The notes beneath the pieces were generated by a model that worked only from the letters and a program-made list of their open reading frames with translations, was not told the DNA's origin and made no database searches. DNA of 56,003 nt from IMG/VR virus record IMGVR_UViG_3300020179_000039, positions 1 to 56,003 of that record, one strand, 5' to 3'. Of the stretch, positions 8,868 to 52,813 are shown one piece after another. Numbering within the stretch: the stretch's first letter is position 1; the number at the start of each line of letters is the position of its first letter. The stretch comes from a virus. Taxonomy: Duplodnaviria; Caudoviricetes. The position numbers and the translations under genes were made by a program.

Positions 8868-9232
8868 CTTTTTTTTCTTTGGTTTTTTATTTCAGCTTTT
8901 TCCTGATCAAGAATAGCAACTTTTTCTTTTAAGTCTAAAAGTTTATCAAGTTGATCATACTTCTCTTTCAGGATACTATATTGTTGTAATGTCTTTGGTG
9001 CACCTATAGCTTCAATCAGTCTCTGAAGTCGAGCTATTTTATTTTCAAGTGACCAGGGTTTAACTACAAATGTTCCTAAATTGGGAACTTGAATATGCGT
9101 ATGTTTTACCTGAGACATTTGATTATGCACATATTTCCAATACTGTACAATAACCGAATCAACTAACTCCTGATTTAGATTAAGCTTTTCCGCTGTCTTC
9201 TTTACTATTGGGTTTCTCTTGGTTGGTTTCAA
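8864..9232 (-). CDS. HU/IHF-like DNA-binding protein
   Basis: IVKKTAEKLNL...IQVPNLGTFVVK HU/IHF signature. Confidence 0.65.
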   Translation of the reverse strand: MKPTKRNPIVKKTAEKLNLNQELVDSVIVQYWKYVHNQMSQVKHTHIQVPNLGTFVVKPWSLENKIARLQRLIEAIGAPKTLQQYSILKEKYDQLDKLLDLKEKVAILDQEKAEIKNQRKKR

Positions 9233-9602
9233 CTGCTAGAAAATTATAGTTTAGTAAAATGTTTCCTTTCTTTGCAACACTCAATGCATCTACAAGTCGG
9301 ATGATTTTTTTACCCTTCCTAGACTTTATTACGTATCCTCTCTTTTCAAGACTTACCATACGATTTCGCACGTTCTGTGAACGCACCTCTGGTTTTTCAG
9401 TATGCTTATATACAATACCAGAAGCACGATCACAGAATAGTCGTAGTTCAATTGGTCCCCATAAGCCCAACAATGTCAGAAGCTCCAAATCACTAGGAAC
9501 AATGTTCTCCTTTTTGAAGAACATTACTTCTGTAATGATTTGGTACTTTACCAGATCGTAGTGATCCAGTCTTACCTTTTTTGTTATTTTGTTTACTTCC
9601 AT
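9180..9602 (-). CDS. putative winged-helix DNA-binding protein
   Basis: SQNVRNRMVSLEKRGYVIK wHTH-like pattern. Confidence 0.55.
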   Translation of the reverse strand: MEVNKITKKVRLDHYDLVKYQIITEVMFFKKENIVPSDLELLTLLGLWGPIELRLFCDRASGIVYKHTEKPEVRSQNVRNRMVSLEKRGYVIKSRKGKKIIRLVDALSVAKKGNILLNYNFLAVETNQEKPNSKEDSGKA

Positions 9603-9622
9603 TTTGGTTTTGTTTCTTAATG

Positions 9623-9748
9623 AATGTCAGTGAGCGAGTTTCACGCTCATTACCTAATATCCAGGATATACTTGCGAGTAAACCCTGTAACCCTTTCCAC
9701 CAAGTGGGGATAGGCGTGTTATTTTTACGCTTACACCAACACGACATT
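9623..9748 (-). ncRNA. tRNA-like RNA with branched insert replacing the anticodon loop
   Basis: Closing stem AATGTC-GT/AC-T-GACATT, D arm TGGTGTAA..ACAC, stem CCTA/TAGG enclosing two hairpins, T arm GAGCG-TGAAACT-CGCTC. Confidence 0.55.
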
Positions 9749-9754
9749 GACTTG

Positions 9755-10129
9755 TGGAGGTGGTGGGATTCGAACCCACGTCCAATAAAGAAGCAGTTCA
9801 ATGCAGCTTATCACATGCTTAGTACTGATCATTTTGTTGACGTCAACGAAATGGTCTGCACCGTAAAGGCACACCAAGTAGGTCGCACTCCACCACTTAG
9901 TTTTACGAACTAAGAAACGTGTTTGTGACTTTCTGTTCCAAGGTTGTCACCACCCGATGACTAGGCAGCAAGTTCTAACTCAGCACCCACGAAAGACATA
10001 GCGTCTTCCCAAGTCATAGACGAAAGTTCAGTTTCGCCGGTTATATTCTGGTACGTGATTATAGAGAGCAGGACCATCTCTCTGCATGTGCATTGACCCT
10101 CGCAGTACTGTCGAAAGCCTTTCACCCCC
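9755..10129 (-). ncRNA. ssrA: tmRNA
   Basis: 5' GGGGGTGAAAGGCTTTCGAC, 3' GGACGTGGGTTCGAATCCCACCACCTCCA; G3:U70 pair; 375 nt; tag ORF 10038-9961 GETELSSMTWEDAMSFVGAELELAA* preceded by ATAACC. Confidence 0.93.
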
Positions 10130-10135
10130 CATATT

Positions 10136-10423
10136 ATAACTGATTTCATTAGGTGGGAATCCTGACTACCCACAAGTCCAACGTATACCCCTTTTAACCT
10201 ATAGTCCAACAGAGTAGCTAATTCTGTTGTGTTGACTAGCTGGATTATCTACCAGCACCTGCTGCAGAGATCAGTATAGTATACTTCGCAGGACTACAGA
10301 GCTTATTGGTTGCGCTCACCTTTAAGATGCATGGTTTTATCTCATATACATGACAACGTGCTTCCTAGTGCTTTTCAGCACAGTGACACTACCTTAACCC
10401 CTCTCAAGAGTTTGTTCAGTCAC
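10136..10423 (-). ncRNA. unidentified structured RNA (~288 nt)
   Basis: Ends pair (GTGACTGA/TCAGTTAT); hairpins GTGCT-GAAA-AGCAC, GCTGG/CCAGC, AACAGA/TCTGTT, GTGGG/CCCAC; lies between tRNA-Met and tmRNA. Confidence 0.55.
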
Positions 10424-10461
10424 AAATGAAAATCAGATTTTTCAAAGAACGATTTATTCTG

Positions 10462-10536
10462 TTGCGGGGGTGAGATTCGAACTCACGTGGTTTGGCTTAT
10501 GAGACCAAGCTGGAACCTACTCCAGTCCACCCCGCC
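10462..10536 (-). tRNA. tRNA-Met(CAT), initiator-like
   Basis: Anticodon arm TTGGT-CTCATAA-GCCAA, T loop TTCGAAT, acceptor GGCGGGG/CCCCGCA with 1:72 mismatch. Confidence 0.85.
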
Positions 10537-10541
10537 TTTAA

Positions 10542-10817
10542 TTACCAGACAATTGCAATGTCTCTTTCAGCAATCATCAAACGAGTTTCACCTTCCACTT
10601 CAATAATCTCTGTGTTCTGAAGAATAATGGCAGGGATGTAAACCTTATCGCCAACTTTTACCAGAGATACCTCCTCACCTACAGCATAAACTTCGAGAGC
10701 TGTCCACTGCTTCATCATTGTTTTTTCAAGCTCTGCTTCTCCTTCTGGAGTAAGGATAACCTTGGATTCAGGTTTTACAGGCTTATTTAATAAAATTCTT
10801 GTTCCTACTAATTTCAT
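10542..10817 (-). CDS. groES: GroES/Cpn10-like co-chaperonin
   Basis: MKLVGTRILL...EVYAVGEEVSLVKVGDKVY...MIAERDIAIVW. Confidence 0.8.
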   Translation of the reverse strand: MKLVGTRILLNKPVKPESKVILTPEGEAELEKTMMKQWTALEVYAVGEEVSLVKVGDKVYIPAIILQNTEIIEVEGETRLMIAERDIAIVW

Positions 10818-10820
10818 AAC

Positions 10821-10892
10821 TTATTTTTTACACCAACCAAAACATATTTTTCCAAAAGTGAGTTTATTGATTAAATTACAGATGTGTTTCAT
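10821..10892 (-). CDS. 23-aa Cys-containing micropeptide
   Basis: MKHICNLINKLTFGKICFGWCKK; A-rich leader; stop 3 nt before groES ATG. Confidence 0.5.
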   Translation of the reverse strand: MKHICNLINKLTFGKICFGWCKK

Positions 10893-10917
10893 ATTTTTTA
10901 GTTTTTTAGTTTTTTAG

Positions 10918-10991
10918 AGCCACCAGTAGGAATCGAACCCACAACCTACTGAGTACAAATCAGTTGCTCTACCAGATTGAGCTATGGTGGC
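10918..10991 (-). tRNA. tRNA-Thr(TGT)
   Basis: GCCACCA/TGGTGGC acceptor, ACTGA-TTTGTAC-TCAGT anticodon arm, GTTCGATTC. Confidence 0.93.
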
Positions 10992-11140: not shown

Positions 11141-11179
11141 TGGATAAACCCCCCGCGTTTATGCGGAGGGCTTATTCCA
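11141..11179 (-). terminator. GC-rich hairpin (terminator or processing site)
   Basis: TGGAATAAGCCCTCCGC-ATAAAC-GCGGGGGGTTTATCCA on minus strand. Confidence 0.45.
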
Positions 11180-11219: not shown

Positions 11220-11504
11220 TTAACTATTGCGTTTGAGAGTTCTTCCACCTCCAGACGCCGGTTCTTCATTAGGGGTAATATTTTCATCCTGCTCACCTTC
11301 TTCCTGTGAAGCCTGCATTGCACTCATAGTCATAATAGCATTTATTCGCTGTGCATCAGCAATAGCTGCTTTACTGTTCAGATCTGCAAGTTGGTGTCTA
11401 AGACTTGCCAACTCAATCTGTGCTTTGTACCATGCAATAATCTCGTCTCGCGAAGGCTGCTCTTGCTTTTGAGCGTCCTGTGCAAGGTTTTCATTTGTAT
11501 CCAT
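11220..11504 (-). CDS. hypothetical coiled-coil protein
   Basis: 94 aa, first gene of leftward transcript; TATATTTG promoter upstream. Confidence 0.65.
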   Translation of the reverse strand: MDTNENLAQDAQKQEQPSRDEIIAWYKAQIELASLRHQLADLNSKAAIADAQRINAIMTMSAMQASQEEGEQDENITPNEEPASGGGRTLKRNS

Positions 11505-11521
11505 ATTCTTATTGGTTTAAG

Positions 11522-11584
11522 GTCTACAATACAAATATACTTAGAAAGTTTAAATTCTACAAATTTATTACTATTTTTGTAGAG
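11522..11584. promoter_or_regulatory. divergent promoter region with TAnnTTTG elements and TGTAGA motifs
   Basis: Minus-strand TATATTTG and TAAATTTGTAGAA; plus-strand TATTTTTGTAGAG. Confidence 0.6.
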
Positions 11585-11610
11585 GTGAGGTTAAACTTTT
11601 AAAGTGTAAT

Positions 11611-11811
11611 ATGCCAGATAGGTATACTTCGAGCTTGAAACTTAAGAAGATACGTGATATCTTACTTAAGAAGGGGTTTAAATACCTTGACGAATATAAG
11701 ACTATCAAAGTCTACAAGAATCGGGAATACAAGTTGTACAGAACCGAAACTGTAGATATTATTACAGATGCAAAAGACAACCGATTGGGTATTATAACGC
11801 AAGACCTATGA
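11611..11811 (+). CDS. hypothetical protein
   Basis: 66 aa, ATGA overlap with next gene. Confidence 0.6.
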   Translation: MPDRYTSSLKLKKIRDILLKKGFKYLDEYKTIKVYKNREYKLYRTETVDIITDAKDNRLGIITQDL

Positions 11812-12305
11812 AAGTCAATAGAGAATTAGAATGGGAAGCCATTGTAAAAGTATGTAGCCAGCTAGAAGAACTAGCTGTATACCATGAATTAAGTCCTCAG
11901 AACACTGTAGTTGCAATGGTTTCTCCTGACTACAGTGCTACTGTTGCTATGCATGTAGCACATCATCTCAGTAAGAATGGTGAAATGCTTGATATTATAC
12001 CTGTGGATATACCTTATCCAGACGAAGATCCTGCACATTTTCAAGATGACTTTATACATTTTGTTTCTCATAAGTTTGACTCTTACGAGCATGTAATCAT
12101 TGTAGAAGGAGGTGTCATTTCTGGAAAAACCTTTGAGTTTATTCATTCAGATCTTAAGGATAAGGGACTTAATGTAATCTCGGTTGCGTTATTTGAAAAT
12201 GTACACAGTGTATTTTGGTCTGACATAGTAGGCTTCTATTATGACTGGAAAAAAGAACCTCTAGAGTTTTATTGGGAGAGAGAAAATAAACATTGGAATT
12301 TTTAA
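11808..12305 (+). CDS. type I phosphoribosyltransferase-fold protein
   Basis: VIIVEGGVISGKT resembles PRPP loop (hhhhDD..hhSGxT); C-terminal LEFYWE resembles the HPRT-like FPWE end. Confidence 0.6.
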   Translation: MKVNRELEWEAIVKVCSQLEELAVYHELSPQNTVVAMVSPDYSATVAMHVAHHLSKNGEMLDIIPVDIPYPDEDPAHFQDDFIHFVSHKFDSYEHVIIVEGGVISGKTFEFIHSDLKDKGLNVISVALFENVHSVFWSDIVGFYYDWKKEPLEFYWERENKHWNF

Positions 12306-13718: not shown

Positions 13719-14241
13719 TGAAATAGAAAAAATTCGTGAGCTAAGGCAAAAGCTTGCTAAACAAATCGTAGACATTTATCCTAAGATGTTTACTTTTTGT
13801 GTAAGACTTAATTGTGAACCCGATCCTTATGAGGACTATGGTAAAGATATGGGTGTAGGTATTGGGTGGTATCCCATTATTAAAAAGCTTGTAGAGACCA
13901 TTCACGAAAACGATACCCGTTTAAATCTAGAAAAAAATATAAATCATATTACCAAAGTCACACAAATTAAAGAGAAGTTCGGCGGTCTTCGGTTCTATGT
14001 AACAGCTACATCAGATGAAAACTGGGAAGCTATTAAGAAAGCTGAAGAAGAATCCTTTTTTACTTGCGAAGAATGTGGTTCTAAAGAAGATGTCGGCAGA
14101 TGGAACGATGGATGGATACTTACTAAATGTAAGAAATGTGCAATAAAAGAATTTGAAAGCCGGCAATGGAAAGAGGGTGTAACTTTTGCTGATATATTCC
14201 AAACCTGGAATGATATTGAGCAAAACAAATACGATGACTAG
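13705..14241 (+). CDS. conserved phage hypothetical protein with Zn ribbon
   Basis: GWYPII...QIKEKFGGLRFY...TCEECG...GWILTKCKKC. Confidence 0.7.
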   Translation: MNTNDEIEKIRELRQKLAKQIVDIYPKMFTFCVRLNCEPDPYEDYGKDMGVGIGWYPIIKKLVETIHENDTRLNLEKNINHITKVTQIKEKFGGLRFYVTATSDENWEAIKKAEEESFFTCEECGSKEDVGRWNDGWILTKCKKCAIKEFESRQWKEGVTFADIFQTWNDIEQNKYDD

Positions 14242-14441
14242 CTTATAGCAAAGGACAGCGTCCATTTTAACCAACTAAGCTCGAGGTTGTAGTGGTAATA
14301 TTTACCAACAACCTTGGGCTTTTTTGTTTTCTGGTCTACTACAACCTTAAAGTCTTCCTCATACCACAAAGTAAGTGCGGGTAAAATGAAGAAGTTGTTA
14401 AAGTTCGGCATCAGCGCGAAACGGTTAAAAATTATTTTCAT
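14238..14441 (-). CDS. hypothetical protein
   Basis: 67 aa, co-oriented with tRNA-Arg transcript. Confidence 0.55.
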   Translation of the reverse strand: MKIIFNRFALMPNFNNFFILPALTLWYEEDFKVVVDQKTKKPKVVGKYYHYNLELSWLKWTLSFAIS

Positions 14442-14443
14442 GG

Positions 14444-14767
14444 TTACTTTGATTTAGGTAGGAACTCTTGTATAACTGAAGCAAATATGGACGTGTTTAT
14501 TTCAAACTGTTTATGGTCCATAAAGAAATGGTAGTTGCCTTGCACCGAGGTGTCTGAAAACCTCGTCGCGGTAATCACCGCAATAGCCTCCATCACCTCA
14601 TGACATATAATACTAAACGTATATGTAGGATCACTCTTTAGAAAGAGCGTGCCTATTACCATCTCATTACGGGAGAAGTCAAATGATCCGCCCGCCTCAT
14701 CCTTTCTCTGTATTACAGTAAATGTATGAGAGAGGATCTTAATGTTTTTAGGGAATATAATTTTCAT
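14444..14767 (-). CDS. small zincin-like (HExxE variant) protein
   Basis: SIICHEVMEAI in a phage mini-metallopeptidase-like context. Confidence 0.5.
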   Translation of the reverse strand: MKIIFPKNIKILSHTFTVIQRKDEAGGSFDFSRNEMVIGTLFLKSDPTYTFSIICHEVMEAIAVITATRFSDTSVQGNYHFFMDHKQFEINTSIFASVIQEFLPKSK

Positions 14768-14818
14768 AAACTACATATATGTCCAGTTTATACACTAAAA
14801 AACTGGACAGGGTTTTAG

Positions 14819-14892
<74 letters not shown>

Positions 14893-15125
14893 ATGTCACA
14901 AATATATACAAATTATTCTTCAGTTCTACATGTTCCACGTGGAACGTCTACAATATGTAGAATTTACTACCCCCGTAGTTCTAACAGGAAAAAGACACCC
15001 CCCCCTATACGGTGCTCAGATGCATACAAGGGAGAAAGAGGGGGGAGGGATTATAATAACTATCCCAAGGTTCAAAAAAAACTGTACCCACCCCCGGTGT
15101 AATCCAGCATGAAAAAGCACTGAGT

Positions 15126-15227
15126 ATGTATCACTGGTACATCATTTCGGGAGTCAGTATCCTTGCAAAGTCCCTGCGAGAAGCGTATCGCTACTTCAGA
15201 GACAACTGCAAGGAGAAAGGTGAGTAA
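15126..15227 (+). CDS. 33-aa micro-protein, first ORF of putative early region
   Basis: MYHWYIISGVSILAKSLREAYRYFRDNCKEKGE followed by motif and hairpin. Confidence 0.45.
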   Translation: MYHWYIISGVSILAKSLREAYRYFRDNCKEKGE

Positions 15228-15255
15228 GGATTACTCACGCCCGGCAGCAACACAC

Positions 15256-15299
15256 AGGTGGTAGTAGTATGTAGTAAGTATATACTATTACCACCTTTT
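15256..15299 (+). terminator. long hairpin with T tail
   Basis: AGGTGGTAGTAGTATGTA-GTAAG-TATATACTATTACCACCT-TTT. Confidence 0.55.
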
Positions 15300-15355
15300 A
15301 CATGCAAATACTCACCACCTTAAGTAATCAACTAAAACCCCTAAATATCACAGTT

Positions 15356-15583
15356 ATGAAAAACCTCAAGCACTTCGTACTACCCGTACAAATTGTAGCA
15401 CTCTTCGTGTTACCCGCAATGATGTTAACTATTATCATCAGTGCTATCGCAACTATGTTCGTCATCCTATCAGACCTTACGTTCATGGACGTCACCACCA
15501 GCGGTATTACCGCAATCTTCGGTGTGTTCGGATACATAGGGATGCTGATAGCAGTAGGACAATGGATGTGGGACGAGCAATAA
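15356..15583 (+). CDS. small membrane protein (2 TM)
   Basis: Two long hydrophobic stretches; start moved to ATG 15356. Confidence 0.65.
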   Translation: MKNLKHFVLPVQIVALFVLPAMMLTIIISAIATMFVILSDLTFMDVTTSGITAIFGVFGYIGMLIAVGQWMWDEQ

Positions 15584-15609
15584 CTCACCACCTCATCCTT
15601 TAAGACAAT

Positions 15610-15654
15610 ACCCCGTTTCAGTGCTTAAAGAGCGTGCACTGATTCGGGGTTTAT
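15610..15654 (+). terminator. hairpin terminator
   Basis: ACCCCG-TT-TCAGTGC...GCACTGA-TT-CGGGGT-TTAT. Confidence 0.55.
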
Positions 15655-15716
15655 AATTAATACGCTCTAAAAATCCCTAAAACCTTGTCGGTGTATAGGT
15701 AACCGCATCACTAGTC

Positions 15717-16232
15717 ATGAGTAAATTAACTCTTTCGCCCGAAGTCTCTGACTTCAAAGAAGGTCTGTTCATCCTTACAGACGAAGCCGGTAACTCTGTC
15801 CGTCGTTACGAAGATGACCCTGAGCAGGGTTACATCGTACTGAAAGATGTGCAGTTCCGCGAAATCACCCTGTTAACTTCCACTCGTCTCCAACTGAAGA
15901 CACGTCAGGCGCTTTATGCAGGTCCTGTAGAAGTGCTTGAGAAGAAGATTGCTATGTGGGAAAAAGCAGGTAAGATTCCAGGTCGCATCCAGTCTCTGGA
16001 TATCCTGGAAGGTGACCCAATCCTTGACAACCTCAAGAACTTGGACCGCTATGTAAAGCGTGCTGGAGAAGACGGACCAGTGCTTACTAAGGAAGGTAAA
16101 AAGATTTACCACTTCCGTAAGTATACCGCTAACCCTGACGCTTTAGACATGCTCATCGAGCACGACAACAAAGCGGAAGTAGTCACACACCGTGCTGCAG
16201 CGCGTCTTGCATCTGCAGACCTCGACGCTTAA
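15717..16232 (+). CDS. hypothetical protein, paralog A (ends ASADLDA)
   Basis: Shares YEDDPEQGY, LYAGPVEVL, GKIPGRI, KRAGEDG, IEHDN blocks with 16495-16974. Confidence 0.8.
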   Translation: MSKLTLSPEVSDFKEGLFILTDEAGNSVRRYEDDPEQGYIVLKDVQFREITLLTSTRLQLKTRQALYAGPVEVLEKKIAMWEKAGKIPGRIQSLDILEGDPILDNLKNLDRYVKRAGEDGPVLTKEGKKIYHFRKYTANPDALDMLIEHDNKAEVVTHRAAARLASADLDA

Positions 16233-16244
16233 GTCAACTCTCCT

Positions 16245-16287
16245 CTGATAAGCAGGGTCATCCTTCGGGGTGACCTTGCTCTATCAG
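16245..16287 (+). terminator. stable cUUCGg hairpin after paralog A
   Basis: CTGATA-AGCAGGGTCATCC-TTCG-GGGTGACCTTGCT-C-TATCAG; no U tail. Confidence 0.5.
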
Positions 16288-16289
16288 CA

Positions 16290-16459
16290 GGAACAAAAAC
16301 AATACTCACCAACGCAGAAGTACACTACTGCAGTTTTTTGATCATCAACTTGACATGTCTGATAATCTGCAAAATCCGGTAGTTTTTGGTGGGACTCGCA
16401 GCCCTAACCTGCAGTATCAACACTCTTTCGACGGAACAAAAACAGTACCCACCACCGCA
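16290..16459 (+). repeat. 27-bp direct repeat, two copies (16290-16316, 16433-16459)
   Basis: GGAACAAAAACAATACTCACCAACGCA vs GGAACAAAAACAGTACCCACCACCGCA, 24/27 identical. Confidence 0.8.
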
Positions 16460-16494
16460 ATTAATCACTAACAAAACAATTTAAAAGTTCAATT

Positions 16495-16974
16495 ATGAGC
16501 AAAAACATCAATCCCAATTTGAAGGTTGTCACAGAGTTGACAGCTTACGAGTCTGATCCCAACCAAGGTTGGGTACGCATGGAAGAGACTTCTTATGTAG
16601 ATAAGGAGATTTCCCCATTGCGCACAATTGCTGTAGCAGAGAAGCGCAGCTGTCTTTATTCCGGTTCTATGGAAGCTTTGCAAGCCAAGCTTGCAGAGTG
16701 GAAGCGTCAAGGTGGTATCACCGGTCGCATCCGCGTAGTAGAGATGGTAGAGTCTGAAGCAAAGCAATTTGTCAAAGACATTACCACTCGTGAACCTAAA
16801 AAAGCCGGTGACACTGGTGTAATCTGCTGTGTAGGTGGTGAACCTATCTATCGCTTTAGCGCATACGACGCTACTGGTGAGAAGACAGACACCATGGTAA
16901 TGCACGATAATGGTGACGCCATCCGTGCTATTAACGCTCAACGTCGTCTTGAGTCTGCAGATTTAGACGCATAA
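16495..16974 (+). CDS. hypothetical protein, paralog B (ends ESADLDA)
   Basis: YESDPNQGW, LYSGSMEAL, GGITGRI, KKAGDTG, VMHDN. Confidence 0.8.
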   Translation: MSKNINPNLKVVTELTAYESDPNQGWVRMEETSYVDKEISPLRTIAVAEKRSCLYSGSMEALQAKLAEWKRQGGITGRIRVVEMVESEAKQFVKDITTREPKKAGDTGVICCVGGEPIYRFSAYDATGEKTDTMVMHDNGDAIRAINAQRRLESADLDA

Positions 16975-16993
16975 GACGTTATGCGTCTACTAT

Positions 16994-17050
16994 ATAGGGA
17001 TACAGTAGTGGGGTAATACCTGCTACTGTACTCTCTATTTAGTTTTTGTT
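16994..17050 (+). terminator. intrinsic terminator
   Basis: ATAGGGA-TACAGTAGTGG...CCTGCTACTGTA-C-TCTCTAT followed by T-rich run. Confidence 0.6.
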
Positions 17051-17402
17051 TGGGTTAGTCTACAATTCCAACGGTAAATGAATAATTTTCAGCGTGTTCG
17101 AGAGAGCACGAATGAGTGAGAGCACCACACCTCACCATATCATTACCGTCAAACAGTTCTCAAAACCACATATTAGGTTCATCAGAACACGGATTAGATA
17201 GCTAACTCATTCTTAACGTCCGTACATAAAGGGTATATTCTCTCTATGTATGATTGACTACTATATATTAAAATAAGAGCTTTCTACTATAGGGTTTTTG
17301 TTAGGGATTCTCCCTTAGTAGAGTAGTACTTCCCCGGGGATTACCGTTTGTGACGGGTGTAGTAACATCGCGTCTTGTAATCTTTGAGACCACAAGTCTC
17401 AT

Positions 17403-17589
17403 AACGCAGGCTAAAGTTTAGGTGTCTCATAGTAACGATAAATAACAGACAATTGGTAGTATCAAGCGTTTTTGTTACATCTTCCATTTTTTTGAGTTTG
17501 GAATCAAATTTGTGACAATCACCAATGATCAAACCATAGGCTCTAACGTCTATCGTCTATGCTGCGGGTTCGATTCCCGCTCTGCGTTC
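17403..17589 (+). ncRNA. tRNA-like RNA with very long anticodon-arm extension
   Basis: Acceptor AACGCAGG/TCTGCGTT, perfect T arm GCGGG-TTCGATT-CCCGC, stems CATAG..ACGATA/TATCGT-CTATG, ATTGGT/ACCAAT, TTGTTACA/TGTGACAA, TTCCA/TGGAA. Confidence 0.6.
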
Positions 17590-17613
17590 AAACCAATCCA
17601 AATATTATACAGT

Positions 17614-17736
17614 ATGAAAAATCAAGGTAAAACAGACCGCCAGGTCCACGATGCTGACCGTAACGCTATGATAGCTGTAGCAGGTCTTATTATTACAGTA
17701 GTGCTCTGCATATTAGTTGACATTTTAAAACGCTAA
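17614..17736 (+). CDS. 40-aa single-TM protein
   Basis: MKNQGKTDRQVHDADRNAMIAVAGLIITVVLCILVDILKR. Confidence 0.55.
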   Translation: MKNQGKTDRQVHDADRNAMIAVAGLIITVVLCILVDILKR

Positions 17737-17738
17737 CC

Positions 17739-17981
17739 ATGAACTTAAAAATCAACTTCTACACAGTGTTTTTTACCCTCATTGTAGGGTATGGTATCTT
17801 CCAATACGGAAGAGTATACGATAGGTCTCCAAAGACCATAGTTGACCAAGCCGAATACAACCACGTTGTGCTCGGGTCCAATGAATGTACAATCGTTACA
17901 GATACAGCAGGAAACGTTAATTCCATATGGTTTAAGGACCAACCTTATACCCTTGATACTGCTATCCTTAATGATTTATAG
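17739..17981 (+). CDS. small protein with N-terminal TM
   Basis: FYTVFFTLIVGYGIF. Confidence 0.6.
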   Translation: MNLKINFYTVFFTLIVGYGIFQYGRVYDRSPKTIVDQAEYNHVVLGSNECTIVTDTAGNVNSIWFKDQPYTLDTAILNDL

Positions 17982-18085
17982 TTCGCACACGCGAACATGG
18001 TTCTAGACATGCGTACACATCTATATAACATGTCTATATACATATATTCGCCCACGCGAACATAGTATGACCGCATACGCGAACA
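17981..18085. repeat. three palindromic repeats (GTT)CGC-N4-GCGAACA
   Basis: 17981 GTTCGCACACGCGAACA; 18047 TTCGCCCACGCGAACA; 18072 CGCATACGCGAACA. Confidence 0.75.
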
Positions 18086-18101
18086 GCTAATCGTAAAAGA
18101 A

Positions 18102-18365
18102 ATGACCAAAACAGAATTCTTTAAAACCTATGGACCATACCTACATGTAGTCTTTTATGACAACAGTGAGTTTGGTGACTTTCTAATTCTTCATCCAGAA
18201 GAAGTTGAAATTGCTAAGAAATTACTTGCCGAAGGGTTAACCATTGTATCAGTTCATGAAAATGAAGATGGAGAAGACCTAGTCGATGTTTCACAACCAT
18301 GTGATTTCGGTAGTCAACCTTTTAAACTTGGATACTTTGCAATTAACACAAGTATCCGAGAGTAA
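18102..18365 (+). CDS. hypothetical protein
   Basis: 87-aa ORF with A-rich start. Confidence 0.65.
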   Translation: MTKTEFFKTYGPYLHVVFYDNSEFGDFLILHPEEVEIAKKLLAEGLTIVSVHENEDGEDLVDVSQPCDFGSQPFKLGYFAINTSIRE

Positions 18366-18415
18366 TTAATGCAATCAGTACTCTATACAAGTGCTCTTTC
18401 ATAGCAAACAAAGTT

Positions 18416-18447
18416 AAGGGGATGGTATAGCATCCCCTTTTGTTTTT
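18416..18447 (+). terminator. intrinsic terminator
   Basis: AAGGGGATG-GTATAG-CATCCCCTT plus T run. Confidence 0.75.
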
Positions 18448-18464
18448 AAAATCCCTTAACTAAA

Positions 18465-18725
18465 ATGGAAAAAGAACTCCAAAGAATGCATGTGCTAGGA
18501 ATAACAGCACGTGATCTAAAAACAAACGAAGTACAAAAAAATGTATTCGTATTTGACAATGAGCATACATGTAAAACCTTTGCTCTATTGGTTAAACTTG
18601 TTGTTCACCCACCTCACAAGTTCAATGTAACTCTTGAAGTAACAGAAACAGATCTCGTCACAAGAGAAAAAGTATCTAATCTTCTTGAGAAGACTAAAGA
18701 AATGGCTGAAAAAATTAATGCATAA
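18465..18725 (+). CDS. hypothetical protein
   Basis: 86-aa ORF. Confidence 0.65.
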   Translation: MEKELQRMHVLGITARDLKTNEVQKNVFVFDNEHTCKTFALLVKLVVHPPHKFNVTLEVTETDLVTREKVSNLLEKTKEMAEKINA

Positions 18726-18746
18726 GTTTAAATTAATCTAATTAAC

Positions 18747-19088
18747 ATGAAAAACTATCAACACGTTTATCGTTACTGGACTAAATCAGAAGAGAAAACC
18801 ATCATCAGTTGTATTAAAAACAACCCTGAAAACCTTACAAAAGCATTTGAATGCGCCGCAGAATTAATTAATCGTAGTAAAGGTGCTGTATGTCAGCGCT
18901 ACTATAATTATATCCGCTTGCGCAAGCAGTTGTTTACCACTTCTTCTGACAAGTCAACTTACGTAAATCGTAAGAATATTTCTCGTCGCCGTAATCAAAA
19001 TAATGATGACCGCGTACAAGTATTCTCAAACATGTTTCGATTGTTGAGTACTGATGAGAAAGCAAGAGTTTTAATGAGCATGCTCTAG
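18747..19088 (+). CDS. Myb/SANT-like HTH protein
   Basis: WTKSEEKTII...AAELINRSKGAVCQRYYNY. Confidence 0.65.
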   Translation: MKNYQHVYRYWTKSEEKTIISCIKNNPENLTKAFECAAELINRSKGAVCQRYYNYIRLRKQLFTTSSDKSTYVNRKNISRRRNQNNDDRVQVFSNMFRLLSTDEKARVLMSML

Positions 19089-22181: not shown

Positions 22182-22796
22182 ATGGGAGTAGATATCTACG
22201 GTATTTCACCGAAAATTATTGGTATAAAACCTGAATTTCCAAATGATGATATTTGGAATAATTTATCTTCTGAAGAGAAAGATGCTCATTTCAAAGCAAT
22301 AGATGACTTTGAAAATAACAACCCTGGTTATTATTTCAGAAATAACTGGTGGGCTTGGAGACCTATTCAATATTTAATGATAGGTCTAAATGACAATTAT
22401 GGTTTAGGATTAACAGATGAACAATGCAAACTGTTAGGTGAAAACAGTGGTCTTGTAACTGATGACTCAGACACATGTAATCGTTTAGCAAATGCATTAG
22501 AAACAATCATCAATGATTTAAAACAAGATAACACCGAAGTTGTATGGATGCTTTCAGGAAGCTGGTCTCAACGTGCTGTAATGGATGGTGGTAGAATAAC
22601 ATCTATCATGCCTTCTAAATCAGTAATTAACACACTAAACAATAAGTATGGTGTAAACAGACTTTCTTTTGAAAAAGAATTTACAACAGATGATAAACCT
22701 GATGTTTTGTACGAACCTTCTCACGGAAGCTCTCTAAAAAACATTGAACGGTTCATTGCGTTTTTACGCAATTGTAATGGATTTGAAATTCATTAA
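22182..22796 (+). CDS. conserved phage hypothetical protein
   Basis: MGVDIYG...GYYFRNNWWAWRP...FIAFLRNCNGFEI. Confidence 0.7.
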   Translation: MGVDIYGISPKIIGIKPEFPNDDIWNNLSSEEKDAHFKAIDDFENNNPGYYFRNNWWAWRPIQYLMIGLNDNYGLGLTDEQCKLLGENSGLVTDDSDTCNRLANALETIINDLKQDNTEVVWMLSGSWSQRAVMDGGRITSIMPSKSVINTLNNKYGVNRLSFEKEFTTDDKPDVLYEPSHGSSLKNIERFIAFLRNCNGFEIH

Positions 22797-22809
22797 TAAA
22801 AAAACTAAC

Positions 22810-24153
22810 ATGCAGCATCATATTTTATTTAAAGCAGAAGCCACATCAGGTGGTGTAAGTATTAAAGTTCTTAATTTTAAGGACATCAAAAAACAATTCC
22901 CTCATTTTGAGGAAGATACACTTAAAGTATCTTGTAATCTAGGCAACTTACTTCGTTTTCCTATTCAAACATGGTTTATTTCTACTATGTCTAATACTCC
23001 AGGTGAAGAAGTAAATCAGTATCAAGTAGCCGGCGAACATCATATTCATATTGCAGAACAAAAAGCATTATTTTTAAACGATAATGTTTTTGTTTTACCA
23101 AGTACTCCTGCAAGTAATCCTACAAGTGATGAGCTTGTATACTTGTTTAATCACATTCTATCAAATGAATATGACTTTGGTGTACCTGCTGATGAAAAAG
23201 TACGGACTCTTGCAGAGCTGTATGCTCCATATGGATATACAATTGATGTTGATGCTATATTGAATCCGCCAGTACCAGAGACTATTGAAGAAGCAGTAGA
23301 AATTGGTAGTTCTCTACATGATTTTATTAAATCTAAGTACCCTGTACCAGATATTAAAAAAGCAGGATTCTCTATTGATCCTGATATCTGGTATTTGCTT
23401 GTTCGTAACGTACTTCGTGGAGAAAATACACTTATTATTGGACCTACAGGTACTGGTAAAACAGAATTGATTTCTCTACTTGCACAGTCTATGGGATTAC
23501 CAATGCATACACAAGATATGGGTACTGTGCAAGATGCTCAATCTGCATTACTTGGTGTACACCGTCTTAATAGTGATGGTAAAAGTGAATTTGATTATGC
23601 ACCTTTTGTGCATAATATTCAACAAGAAGGTGTTATTCTGCTAGATGAGCTTAACCGTTCACCTCTCGCTGCAAATAATATCTTATTTCCTTGTCTAGAC
23701 CGTCGTCGTTATTTACCTGTTGATATTGCTGATTCAGATGCTGATCGTCGCATTCCAGTGCACGAGAAAGCAATTTTCTTTGCTACTGCAAACTTGGGTT
23801 CAGAATATTCAGGTACACAGATGATTGACCGTGCGTTATTAGACCGCTTTTTTCCGATTGAATTGGATTACCCAATTGAAAAAGAAGAAGTACGTGTTCT
23901 TGTAAACCGTACAGGTGTAGATGAAAAGAGTGCAAAAGCTATTGTAAAAGTTGGTAATCAGATTCGCAGACAGTTTAAAGAACAAGAATTGTCTAATGCT
24001 ATTTCTGTACGTCATACTTTACAAGCAGCTAATCTTGTAAAAGATGGATTTGCTCTTGAAAAAGCTCTATCAAGTACTATTATGCCGTTGTTTGAAGACG
24101 GTATTGGTGCAAGTGAGCGCAGTAAAGTCAAATCAATTATTGCAGCATTTTAA
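22810..24153 (+). CDS. MoxR/CbbQ/NorQ-like AAA+ ATPase
   Basis: GPTGTGKT, LLDELNR, FFATAN, DRALLDRF, ISVRH. Confidence 0.88.
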   Translation: MQHHILFKAEATSGGVSIKVLNFKDIKKQFPHFEEDTLKVSCNLGNLLRFPIQTWFISTMSNTPGEEVNQYQVAGEHHIHIAEQKALFLNDNVFVLPSTPASNPTSDELVYLFNHILSNEYDFGVPADEKVRTLAELYAPYGYTIDVDAILNPPVPETIEEAVEIGSSLHDFIKSKYPVPDIKKAGFSIDPDIWYLLVRNVLRGENTLIIGPTGTGKTELISLLAQSMGLPMHTQDMGTVQDAQSALLGVHRLNSDGKSEFDYAPFVHNIQQEGVILLDELNRSPLAANNILFPCLDRRRYLPVDIADSDADRRIPVHEKAIFFATANLGSEYSGTQMIDRALLDRFFPIELDYPIEKEEVRVLVNRTGVDEKSAKAIVKVGNQIRRQFKEQELSNAISVRHTLQAANLVKDGFALEKALSSTIMPLFEDGIGASERSKVKSIIAAF

Positions 24154-24163
24154 TTAATTAATT

Positions 24164-26086
24164 ATGGGTTTCAGAGATTGGTTTAACCGAAAAGAAGAGA
24201 ATAATTACTCTTATTATGACAGTTCTCGTAGACTTATATCTTGGGATACTGGTTACAAAAACTACTCTGACTTTCTTGTTGATTCTAAACGTGGTAAAAA
24301 AGGTATTTCTGATGTTTCTAGCATCTTAAATTCTATGTTGCGTGTAATGGGTGTCCCTAAAAGCACCCGTTTCACCAGCAAAGCCACAGCTTCAACATCT
24401 ACTTTAGAGTTACCTATTGGTATTCTTAAAAATGATGAAGGTAAAGTAGAATTGACAGGTGAAAAAGTAGATGCTTTTTATGGTAAAAGTGTACTGAATG
24501 CAAGTTTAAACACACTTATGACAAGTGCAGATAAAACAGCATATGTACACGCCGTAAATAAATCTAAAAAATCTGGTGATTTACAGTCTATGATACGTGT
24601 TCTTCTTGATGATGAACGTATTCACAGAGAATTGTCAGAATCATATCCAGGATACAGTCGATTTGCTCAAAAGCATAAAGAACATATTTATGCAAAAGCA
24701 GAAGATTGGTTAAGTAAACCAGCTGAATCTGAGATGGAAGAAGTAGTTCAGCTTTTGACAATGTTGATTCGTTATCCTAAAGATGTTCCAAAAGAACTTC
24801 TTGAAAAATATTCAAAACTTGTAGACTATTTACAGAAAATATTCAATAAGTTTGATGGTATTCCAAGAACGTCTGAAGATGCTGATAAAATCACTAAAGC
24901 AATCTATAATACTGTAATTAAGTACATAGATGAAACTTTACCCCCACCTCCACCTCCAGGTCCTGGAGAAGATGGAGAGAGTGATGAAGGTGATGAGGGT
25001 GACGATACTAGTGACAGTTCTGATGATTCTACTAAACCTGACAGCGAAAAAACACCTTCTGACAAACGTAGAGATACAAGAAAACGTAAATCTAGTTTGA
25101 GTGCAGCATTTGCTGATTCTGTTAAATCAGTATATGAAAATTTAGTAGATCAAATTGAAACACCTGAAGAATCAGAAAAGAATGAAGAAATAGCTAAATC
25201 TATTACTGAAGAAATAGAAAAAGCTGAAGAAGCAAGCAAGTTTACATATGGTAAAGATGATGCAGACCCTACAAAAACGGGAATTCATTTTCTAACACCA
25301 GATGCTAACAAATCAAGATACGATGCTACAAAATCTAAAATAGATATTGCAAAAGCACAAGTTCTTAAAAAGCTTCTTTCTCGTAAAAGTAAAGATTATG
25401 ATTTTGCTTTAAAATCTATGCGTTCAGGTAGACTTGATACAAACAAAATTGCAGAAGCAGTTCAACATGTCCCTACTATTTATGAAAGAATAGGGAATGT
25501 AAAGACTAATAAAATTTGCATTGGTGTTTTGATTGACGAGTCAGGTTCAATGAGTGGGGATTCAATTGATAAAGCAAGAGAAGCTGCTATATTTATTAAT
25601 GAAGCATTAGGTAAACTACCTGATGTTGAATTATTTATTTATGGTCACTCTGCTGATCAAATGGGTTCACGTACTACAGAAATTTATACTTATCGCGAAC
25701 CAGGTAAATCAGTATCTCCTTATGCTTTAGGTGGTTGTAAAGCACGTTACGAAAATCGTGATGGTGTTGCAATACTTGAAACTGCTAAACGTATCCGAAA
25801 ATTTACTCAGAACAATGGTGTGCTATTCGTTTTATCAGATGGTGCACCAGCTGCTTCAGGATATAATGGTGGTACAGGAATTAGAGATACTAAAGAAAAA
25901 GTTAACCAAGTTGAGAAATTAATAGGTTTTCAAGTAATTCAAATTGCTATTAATAACCATGTTCCTTCAGAGCAAATGTTTAATCATTTTGTAAAAATGA
26001 CAGACATTAAAACTCTACCAATTGACATGGTTAATTACTTGTCTCGCCACATTAACAGGTTGGTTAAAGAAAAGTACACAATGTAA
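24164..26086 (+). CDS. vWA-domain partner protein (CobT/NorD-like)
   Basis: SGRLD, IDESGSM MIDAS motif, NRDG, VLSDGAP; acidic Pro-rich linker. Confidence 0.85.
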   Translation: MGFRDWFNRKEENNYSYYDSSRRLISWDTGYKNYSDFLVDSKRGKKGISDVSSILNSMLRVMGVPKSTRFTSKATASTSTLELPIGILKNDEGKVELTGEKVDAFYGKSVLNASLNTLMTSADKTAYVHAVNKSKKSGDLQSMIRVLLDDERIHRELSESYPGYSRFAQKHKEHIYAKAEDWLSKPAESEMEEVVQLLTMLIRYPKDVPKELLEKYSKLVDYLQKIFNKFDGIPRTSEDADKITKAIYNTVIKYIDETLPPPPPPGPGEDGESDEGDEGDDTSDSSDDSTKPDSEKTPSDKRRDTRKRKSSLSAAFADSVKSVYENLVDQIETPEESEKNEEIAKSITEEIEKAEEASKFTYGKDDADPTKTGIHFLTPDANKSRYDATKSKIDIAKAQVLKKLLSRKSKDYDFALKSMRSGRLDTNKIAEAVQHVPTIYERIGNVKTNKICIGVLIDESGSMSGDSIDKAREAAIFINEALGKLPDVELFIYGHSADQMGSRTTEIYTYREPGKSVSPYALGGCKARYENRDGVAILETAKRIRKFTQNNGVLFVLSDGAPAASGYNGGTGIRDTKEKVNQVEKLIGFQVIQIAINNHVPSEQMFNHFVKMTDIKTLPIDMVNYLSRHINRLVKEKYTM

Positions 26087-52322: not shown

Positions 52323-52742
52323 TCAACCAAACAACTTGAAAAGAACTGTAAAGTTCGATTCAGTTTCAATGTTTTTGAATTCATCTACGCTAAGTTTAAT
52401 ATGTTCAACTTCGCGTTCAGTTTTCATTAGTTCATCCATCTGTTTACGAAATTCAATAATGTTGGGATTAACTACACCATCAATTTCATTTTTAATCTCA
52501 AAAGATCCGTCTTCAGTTTCTGTTCCCAAAGACTTAATTAGTTCATTACGCTGTTCACCAATATACTTCTTATCTTCTTGTAGAGAAGTCAAGAGTTTAT
52601 TTAAGTGATACTTTGTGGCAATTGAAAGCTTGTGTTGGAGCAATCCTTTAGAAACAATTCCTGTTTCATTAGCAACGCCGCCAATTTCCGCTTCCAGGAA
52701 GAGAATCTCTTCCAGAGTTAGACTGGTTTTTACTGTTTCCAT
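52323..52742 (-). CDS. helical hypothetical protein at end of tail operon
   Basis: 139 aa from ATG 52742; own TATATTTGTAGAG promoter. Confidence 0.7.
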   Translation of the reverse strand: METVKTSLTLEEILFLEAEIGGVANETGIVSKGLLQHKLSIATKYHLNKLLTSLQEDKKYIGEQRNELIKSLGTETEDGSFEIKNEIDGVVNPNIIEFRKQMDELMKTEREVEHIKLSVDEFKNIETESNFTVLFKLFG

Positions 52743-52813
52743 ATACGTATTTTTGGATTTGTTAACTCTACAAATATACAAGAGTTCTACAATTAAAACA
52801 AAGAATTAGGGTA

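Follow-up and report, generated by a model that had tools for sequence, protein, structure and literature searches.

An array of tRNAs, a tmRNA and two structured RNAs upstream of the packaging and head genes of a freshwater crAss-like phage

To examine how RNA genes are arranged ahead of the packaging and head genes of an uncultivated phage, we analysed the 56,003-nucleotide (nt) virus contig IMGVR_UViG_3300020179_000039 of IMG/VR (the window below, which is the entire 56-kb record), in which positions 9623–10991 hold a close-packed array of transfer RNA (tRNA) genes, a transfer-messenger RNA (tmRNA) gene and two further structured RNAs, RNA-A and RNA-B. The array is probably best read as a tRNA-punctuated operon head from which stable RNAs are released by the tRNA-processing enzymes of the host, and we consider it quite probable that this variable region opens the structural operon (packaging and head genes) of a freshwater crAss-like phage whose host belongs to the Bacteroidota. 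Every element lies on the minus strand, in agreement with the co-orientation reported by a first-pass annotation of this DNA, and the order of transcription is tRNA-Thr(UGU), a 23-amino-acid (aa) open reading frame (ORF), a 91-aa GroES-like ORF, tRNA(CAU), RNA-A, the tmRNA, RNA-B and a 140-aa ORF resembling winged-helix proteins, with the bounds 9623 and 10991 falling exactly at the 3' end of RNA-B and the 5' end of tRNA-Thr. Six of the seven elements listed by that annotation are real (tRNA-Thr, GroES, tRNA(CAU), the RNA of about 300 nt here called RNA-A, the tmRNA, and RNA-B as a structured RNA), while the seventh, a 'micropeptide', is not (see below). A conserved stretch of 24 nt separates tRNA(CAU) from the RNA-A stem, 10 nt separate that stem from tmRNA position +1, and 6 nt separate the tmRNA discriminator base from the first RNA-B helix. 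Phage tRNAs, tmRNAs and GroES-like genes are of known kinds, and the closest analogues of the array are the T4 tRNA region with its RNAs C and D and the tRNA islands that carry the GOLLD and ROOL RNAs.

RNA-B (9623–9748, minus strand; 126 nt) is, on comparative evidence, a well-supported leader RNA that is not in Rfam 15. It was found by iterated nhmmer searches and with a covariance model, R1, related loci yielding 25 matches over 745 kb and 49 over 309 kb. No locus has more than one copy, and each copy stands immediately ahead of the winged-helix ORF; the conserved ATG of this ORF follows RNA-B by 9–21 nt in the 22 loci examined and by 20 nt in the window. The model describes a five-helix RNA (P1, P2, Px, P3, P4, P5) with a T-loop-like hairpin and a pseudoknot between loops L2 and L4. 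The molecule is closed by P1; the short hairpin P2 bears the conserved loop (U/G)AAGCGUAAAA; Px encloses P3 (loop GGUGGA) and P4 (loop CGCA); and P5, of 5–6 base pairs (bp) with the 7-nt loop UGAAACU, lies directly against P1. Helix sequences are wholly different between lineages, as illustrated by Px (CCUA/UAGG, UACUC/GAGUA, UCCAA/UUGGA, GCAA/UUGC, CUCUC/GAGAG and ACGCCC/GGGCGU) and by the 3-bp pseudoknot (GCG/CGC, GUG/CAC, GCC/GGC or ACG/CGU), and covariation is seen in P1, P2, Px, P3, P5 and the pseudoknot. Among 24 distinct sequences 80.9% of the cells assigned to pairs do pair, compared with 62.6% in shuffles (0 of 500 as high), and covariation scores 0.513, where slid partners give no more than 0.198. 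Pairing reaches 98–100% of cells in P3, P5 and the pseudoknot; P4, which varies in length and aligns poorly (40–45% paired), nevertheless forms a hairpin in 22 of 22 distinct sequences. The fold of the single sequence was no better than those of its shuffles (z −1.9). A reduced form of about 60 nt, consisting of Px, P3 with GGUGGA, and P4, follows tRNA-Met and precedes the winged-helix ORF in two relatives (L162 and L176, at about 1420–1500). No description of such a leader RNA was found in literature searches, which were not structure-based and did not cover supplements.

Known families do not account for RNA-B, on which no Rfam 15 model reaches its cut-off. The nearest candidate, the riboswitch model AdoCbl-II (RF01689), shares a conserved T-loop hairpin comparable to P5 (stem plus loop GUGAAAC) and scores 20.1 bits (E = 0.02 on 191 nt) against a cut-off of 36.5, but the match is confined to the P5 hairpin, the rest of the model does not fit, the order of helices in RNA-B is different, and no such match was obtained at 15 other copies; it was rejected, although CobT-like and 'porphyrin biosynthesis' ATPase-like ORFs occur in the phage. 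A tRNA identity was likewise rejected, as neither ARAGORN nor the Rfam tRNA and tmRNA models match the element, P1 and P5 together amount to 13–16 bp where the acceptor/T-arm stack of a tRNA has 12 bp, and no CCA follows. The description of RNA-B as a 'tRNA-like RNA' therefore does not stand, and any likeness is at most one of topology, namely a four-way junction and a T-loop-like 7-nt loop.

That topology does leave room for an explanation in which RNA-B is active, as a sensor that binds tRNA or tmRNA, a mimic of tRNA for the processing enzymes, or a self-cleaving RNA that cuts the messenger RNA (mRNA) free of the stable RNAs. Its four-way junction, with a 5–6-bp hairpin bearing a 7-nt U...A loop set against the closing helix, is what such a role might use, and its conserved nucleotides are loop residues, where tertiary or trans contacts would be expected. 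The GGUGG of the P3 loop is retained by 23 of 25 aligned sequences as well as by the reduced forms, and it is the complement of the CCACC found at the mature tmRNA 3' end and in Ala-type acceptor arms; in phages of the L004 type RNA-A adjoins RNA-B at the place where other lineages have a tRNA. Against this, models of tRNAs, T-boxes, ribozymes and riboswitches all fail to match, a fixed UGGN is lacking since the nucleotide preceding GGUGG varies, and the region around the start codon is A-rich and unstructured in every case, with no expression platform visible. In addition, RNA-B occurs without any tmRNA above the cut-off in five relatives, three of which reach at least 90% completeness; two of the five are complete records. 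An active RNA-B seems unlikely to us on balance, and a tRNA-punctuated operon head, in which RNA-B is a passive folded leader, remains the preferred reading.

The second RNA, RNA-A (10130–10455, minus strand; closing stem 10436–10140, conserved 5' flank 10455–10437), appears from its alignment to be an enlarged variant of the manA RNA that is not filed in Rfam. The Rfam manA model (RF01745) aligns to it over its full length at 29.3 bits, and scores in the relatives L040, L006 and L027 are 33.5, 29.8 and 23.9 bits, all below the cut-off of 55.2. The blocks of the manA core that are kept are the 5' junction motif, the next hairpin, the long-range closing helix and the 3' hairpin; in manA as in RNA-A these read GUGACUGAA... 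for the junction, a hairpin with UAAGGU, the closing helix, and GUGGGUA...UCCCAC for the 3' hairpin, and both RNAs come from aquatic phages (Weinberg et al., 2010; PMC2864571). In place of the manA centre RNA-A has about 190 nt of additional helices. Covariation is seen at four pairs of the closing helix, and all 10 copies possess the 3' hairpin. RNAalifold, applied to 10 distinct sequences, gave 84 pairs, 22 of them compensatory; 97.8% of the cells assigned to pairs do pair, compared with 92.7% in shuffles (0 of 500 as high), and covariation scores 0.226, where slid partners give no more than 0.059. The single-sequence fold was no better than shuffles (z −1.3), only the comparative analysis being informative. 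RNA-A and RNA-B thus both pass covariation and shuffle statistics, which bears out the structural conservation in relatives expected of them in the first-pass annotation.

All 10 copies of RNA-A carry a palindromic hexamer in one apical loop, UAGCUA in the window and UGAUCA in the other nine; the two versions differ by four changes and self-complementarity is kept, which suggests, as far as alignment can, that copies of the RNA may bind one another. A recent preprint describes manA RNAs forming decamers and a 60-subunit cage in vitro through kissing loops (10.64898/2026.07.01.735769). Similarly, PMC12286853 describes GOLLD and ROOL, RNAs of phages and prophages that assemble into RNA-only cages, as 'often near tRNA islands', with GOLLD env-38 lying downstream of a Met-tRNA. 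RNA-A resembles GOLLD in following tRNA(CAU) and in its self-complementary loop, but it shows no sequence or model similarity to GOLLD or ROOL and is about 300 nt long rather than roughly 600 to more than 800 nt.

The placement of RNA-A differs from that of manA, which occupies the 5' untranslated region (UTR) of sugar or nucleotide metabolism genes. On its 3' side RNA-A adjoins tRNA-Arg, tRNA-Thr, the tmRNA or RNA-B in 14 of 14 carriers among 80 related loci with the winged-helix ORF and in 6 of 6 further loci; no copy occupies a cis-regulatory position in the 5' UTR of a protein-coding gene, a tRNA, tmRNA or RNA-B standing within a few nt at every locus. In distant relatives, where RNA-A retains 77–82% DNA identity compared with 65–67% for the flanking coding DNA, it precedes tRNA-Arg or tRNA-Thr instead of following tRNA(CAU). 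A tmRNA accompanies RNA-A in the window and in only 1 of the 14 carrier loci, and because of this the association of RNA-A in this phage family appears to be with tRNA-type genes in general and not with tmRNA in particular. Its higher identity than the flanking coding DNA, its different place in the array, its compensatory pairs and its palindromic loop mark RNA-A as a gene in its own right, probably a stand-alone manA-type RNA. A scan of IMG/VR with 17-mers of RNA-A gave 64 stretches, of which nhmmer confirmed 16, the others being chance-like. Among GenBank phages there was no RNA-A match at E ≤ 1, and a 1.9-kb query matched tRNA-Thr genes only.

Comparison of close relatives shows which parts of the array come and go. 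The tmRNA is precisely missing in L004, L005 and L008, which retain RNA-A; L001–L003 have neither RNA-A nor tmRNA; and L006 has everything. In one DNA run from the lake (X13), a contig joins 9784 to 10459, which is the form lacking both RNA-A and the tmRNA. The term 'module' used in the first-pass annotation is therefore inappropriate, since the tmRNA, or RNA-A plus the tmRNA, is missing in close relatives and RNA-A stands elsewhere in other lineages. Because cassettes have been gained, lost and moved between lineages, we read the row as an accessory array, its RNA genes being, to judge from these alignments, exchangeable cassettes and not one co-adapted system. The locus offers a compact natural test set, in which near-identical phages of one lake population differ in the presence of the tmRNA and of RNA-A, and which includes a manA-type RNA whose self-complementary loop has changed at four positions with its palindrome retained.

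The tmRNA (9752–10129, minus strand) is a one-piece molecule recognised by ARAGORN and by the Rfam model RF00023 (88.5 bits against a cut-off of 47, model positions 1–374), and it encodes a 25-aa tag, GETELSSMTWEDAMSFVGAELELAA, followed by a stop. Its acceptor arm is tRNA-Ala-like (5' GGGGGUG, 3' CACCUCC, discriminator A, G3-U70), its T arm is GUGGG/CCCAC, and its tag ends in ELELAA. Directly upstream of the winged-helix ORF, ARAGORN reports a tmRNA in 21 of the 80 loci. Tags as given by ARAGORN are mostly 17–31 aa long, although resume codons differ between near-identical tmRNA genes and tag starts are thus uncertain, and many conform to the pattern ...M..(K/W)..(F/M)S(L/F)..E(V/L).(V/L)AA. 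Such long patterned tags (L154–L233) suggest that selection may act on more than the C-terminal degradation signal. A published survey reported tmRNAs in 402 of 18,146 phage genomes (~2%; PMC9004378). Like other phage-encoded tmRNAs, this one is a complete ssrA gene lying early in an operon of a lytic-type aquatic phage; it differs in its long 25-aa tag with a recurring pattern and in being a one-piece tmRNA present in only part of a near-identical population.

Several further observations concern the tmRNA sequence. In the pseudoknot region, 33 bases (9887–9919, minus strand) recur with 100% identity in intergenic DNA from five Synechococcus phages, and the stretch is also present at 2501–2533 of L144. 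In S-H68 a bona fide wcaG RNA (64.1 bits) begins 13 nt after this stretch, and the tmRNA segment itself gives a weak wcaG match (15.8 bits). A module consisting of UUUC, a hairpin and GUGGUGGA has covarying stems in 13 of 13 aligned phage tmRNAs, and UGGUGGAG is complementary to the mature 3' end, CUCCACCA.

A candidate promoter for the whole array lies at 11532–11563 on the minus strand, where a pattern search found the -33 element TTTG, a 20-nt spacer and the -7 element TATATTTG. The -33/-7 consensus is the one used for Bacteroidota promoters. Between 9600 and 11600 the minus strand has no other strict match, and the core block of this one is kept in 14 of 14 aligned loci, including distant ones with coding DNA just 65–70% identical. 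In the system of 10.1101/2020.03.07.982082, two intergenic regions are transcribed at a very high level. A second strict match at 52771–52802 (minus strand) has the wording TTGTAGAA...TATATTTG in common with it and precedes a 152-aa ORF (52323–52781).

The course of events that we infer, from co-transcription and the processing enzymes to the role of RNA-B and the multimerisation of RNA-A, would begin at this site. The promoter at 11563–11532 most likely drives one leftward transcript containing two small ORFs, tRNA-Thr, the GroES-like ORF, tRNA(CAU), RNA-A, the tmRNA and RNA-B, and the transcript would continue through the winged-helix gene, an HU-like gene, a nuclease, the terminase and the portal. 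The RNase P of the host would cut the 5' ends of the tRNAs and the tmRNA, and the 3' tRNA-processing endonuclease would cut after the discriminator bases, with CCA added thereafter. The pathway of RNase P, 3' endonuclease and CCA addition is established for tRNA precursors that lack CCA, and an encoded CCA is absent from the tRNAs and the tmRNA of the array. These cuts would free the tRNAs and the tmRNA together with RNA-A and a short GroES mRNA. The downstream mRNA would then begin 6 nt ahead of RNA-B, a compact folded leader that probably stabilises or tunes it.

The T4 tRNA region offers a parallel, in that stable RNAs lie among phage tRNA genes and accumulate in infection, T4 RNAs C and D being released together with the tRNAs. 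In PMC9697503, RNAC and RNAD are described as late RNAs and as 'RNAs of yet unknown functions'. The present array differs from that of T4 in phage group and host, in having larger RNAs unrelated in sequence, in the interleaved tmRNA and GroES gene, and in heading a structural operon.

Metatranscriptome data were available as assembled contigs from three runs (X18, X19, X20) of two studies. A 387-nt RNA contig, 95% identical, covers 9765–10135 and hence the tmRNA; the RNA-A core (10197–10419) is covered by contigs at depths of 22–59; and one contig, from a relative, starts ahead of tRNA-Thr and extends into the GroES ORF. No RNA contig covers the coding flanks at 9000–9700 and 11430–12000. Three contigs stop at 10197 and one at 10419 plus adapter-like letters; these stops were not used as RNA ends, because contigs break at variants. 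The pattern of cover is compatible with stable RNAs.

It also fits an arrangement of independent transcription units, in which RNA-A and perhaps the tmRNA would have a promoter in the 5' flank and tight spacing would reflect compact packing, for the contigs lie on RNA genes and none on the coding flanks. The conserved 18-nt 5' flank of RNA-A, AAUCGUUCUUUG, accompanies it in every context, including lineages in which no tRNA precedes it, and could be such a promoter. Moreover, a G+C-rich hairpin of 8 bp with a weak U tail, read from the sequence after a 94-aa ORF (11149–11170, minus strand), sits between the candidate promoter and the array; it could be a terminator or attenuator and may end transcription there. 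A terminator scan did not call this hairpin, and the same generic scan found nothing above shuffles and no terminator-like site between the RNA genes, where neighbours are just 6–24 nt apart; nor is there a strict -33/-7 match inside the array. Given these last points, independent units are rather doubtful, and we continue to favour a single processed transcript.

The possible promoter in the RNA-A flank and the hairpin at 11170–11149 are two of several points that weigh against that transcript. A generic sigma-70 promoter scan gave sites no more numerous than in shuffles. RNA-B has no obvious RNase P site at its 5' end, because P1 plus P5 exceeds the 12-bp stack. At 32 of the 80 loci it was not detected ahead of the winged-helix ORF; those of these loci that could be read have instead a tmRNA 3' end and two small hairpins, or the reduced form. 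The tmRNA contig extends about 20 nt past the mature 5' end, so that it may represent precursor or DNA carry-over. RNA-B (9606–9706) is uncovered in all three runs, a result that is uninformative either way as it comes from contigs only, and ends, strand and continuity are not readable from contigs.

A third alternative concerns function, with the tRNAs and the tmRNA serving as spare parts against defences that cut tRNA anticodon loops or tmRNA. It has been proposed that phage tRNAs evade tRNA-targeting defences (PMC10264068), and near-identical phages differ in whether they carry the tmRNA cassette, a patchiness often seen in accessory counter-defence genes. Nothing in the sequence points this way, however, and ordinary codon supply explains the tRNAs, which read the commonest Thr and Arg codons of the phage (ACA is 45% of Thr codons and AGA 38% of Arg codons in 23 long ORFs). 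We regard the spare-parts explanation as very improbable.

The boldest combination of these elements would make RNA-B a new structured-RNA class at the border between the stable-RNA array and the structural operon, acting as a sensor or processing signal directed at tRNA and tmRNA: its T-loop hairpin would read the tRNA elbow or a processing enzyme, its GGUGG would pair with the CCACC of tmRNA or Ala-type acceptors, and RNA-A would form manA-type cages acting with tRNA-type RNAs in infected cells. This is distinctly improbable as a whole; were the sensor part true, late-gene expression would depend on the state of the translation-rescue RNAs. The locus also extends a recurrent theme, as phage tRNA islands have repeatedly yielded large folded RNAs without known function (GOLLD, ROOL and now a manA-type RNA), several of which build RNA-only cages in vitro. 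RNA-B, for its part, is tied to one conserved winged-helix gene heading the structural operon of environmental crAss-like phages.

Of the two tRNA genes in the array, tRNA-Thr (10917–10991, minus strand; anticodon UGU) is found by ARAGORN and scores 71.1 bits with the Rfam tRNA model. The other (10461–10536, minus strand) is atypical, having a G1-A72 mismatch and the anticodon CAU (Met or Ile2) in the 7-nt loop CUCAUAA; it scores 37.9 bits with RF00005 against a cut-off of 29, and ARAGORN reports it as 'tRNA-???' in the window and as tRNA-Met(cat) in relatives. A tRNA-Arg(UCU) gene stands alone among plus-strand genes at 14818–14892 (minus strand), about 3.8 kb from the array, and in L025-type relatives a tRNA-Arg lies within the array, between RNA-A and tRNA-Thr.

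The 91-aa ORF (10542–10817, minus strand) has the fold of a GroES co-chaperonin according to structure prediction. It matches PHROG 3188 ('co-chaperonin GroES') at E = 3.1e-5 over residues 2–90, its full length, and has 41 distinct homologues in related loci. Pfam Cpn10 gave no match even at E ≤ 10, a single-sequence search of the PDB gave chance-level rows (E ~1), and a profile search of the PDB gave weak matches to GroES-like domains of dehydrogenases only. The AlphaFold2 (AF2) model has a predicted local distance difference test (pLDDT) score of 80.5, and the top Foldseek matches in the PDB are GroES/Cpn10 chains, six of them at E ≤ 0.001 (8wuw_a, E = 2.8e-4, TM 0.62); T4 gp31 is matched at E = 0.019. 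Residues ~12–40, the mobile-loop region, are modelled at low confidence (pLDDT 62–68) and partly as helix.

The 23-aa ORF (10821–10892, minus strand) owes its existence to a 75-nt insertion at 10818–10892, in the gap between tRNA-Thr and the GroES start, which alignment and blastn breakpoints place in this contig alone and which carries ATGAAA at each end. The insertion is missing from L001, L004 and L006, where tRNA-Thr is followed directly by the GroES start codon. The frame proposed as a 'micropeptide' is accordingly a creation of this insertion and not a conserved gene.

Downstream, the first gene after the array is the conserved winged-helix-like ORF (9180–9602, minus strand; 140 aa here and 131–140 aa overall), whose product weakly resembles winged-helix regulators in predicted structure. 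Pfam winged-helix and MarR matches are weak, one of five AF2 models reaches pLDDT 72 (the others 44–55), and Foldseek matches to MarR, Fur and ArsR regulators are all at E ≥ 0.016. No relative was found in 185,579 bacterial and archaeal species genomes.

Further along the same strand a 735-aa ORF is the large terminase (phrog_6681, E = 1.7e-66) and a 905-aa ORF the portal (phrog_6547, E = 2.9e-90), which confirms the position of the array upstream of packaging and head genes and rules out replication genes as its downstream neighbours. By tblastn the portal matches annotated portals of crAss-like gut phages at 21–26% identity, as well as Flavobacterium, Cellulophaga and Bacteroides phages, the best match being a Leptolyngbya phage (34.8%); together with phrog_6547, the crAss-like portals uphold the earlier assignment to crAss-like phages. 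The habitat is lake water or freshwater metagenomes, not the gut, with 17 DNA runs holding at least 0.57 of sampled words, and related records reach 97–126 kb, two of them having direct terminal repeats.

Elsewhere in the window, the region 14000–18750 has a G+C content of 0.42 compared with ~0.34 and contains few long ORFs. Within it, the gap at 16974–18747 has no ORF of at least 90 aa and Rfam finds nothing there; recoding of TAG as Q was considered for this gap and dropped, as it gave just one 208-aa ORF. At 22744–26086 on the plus strand, adjacent ORFs match a 'porphyrin biosynthesis' AAA-type ATPase (phrog_249, E = 1.4e-37) and a CobT-like protein (phrog_17276, E = 9e-7).

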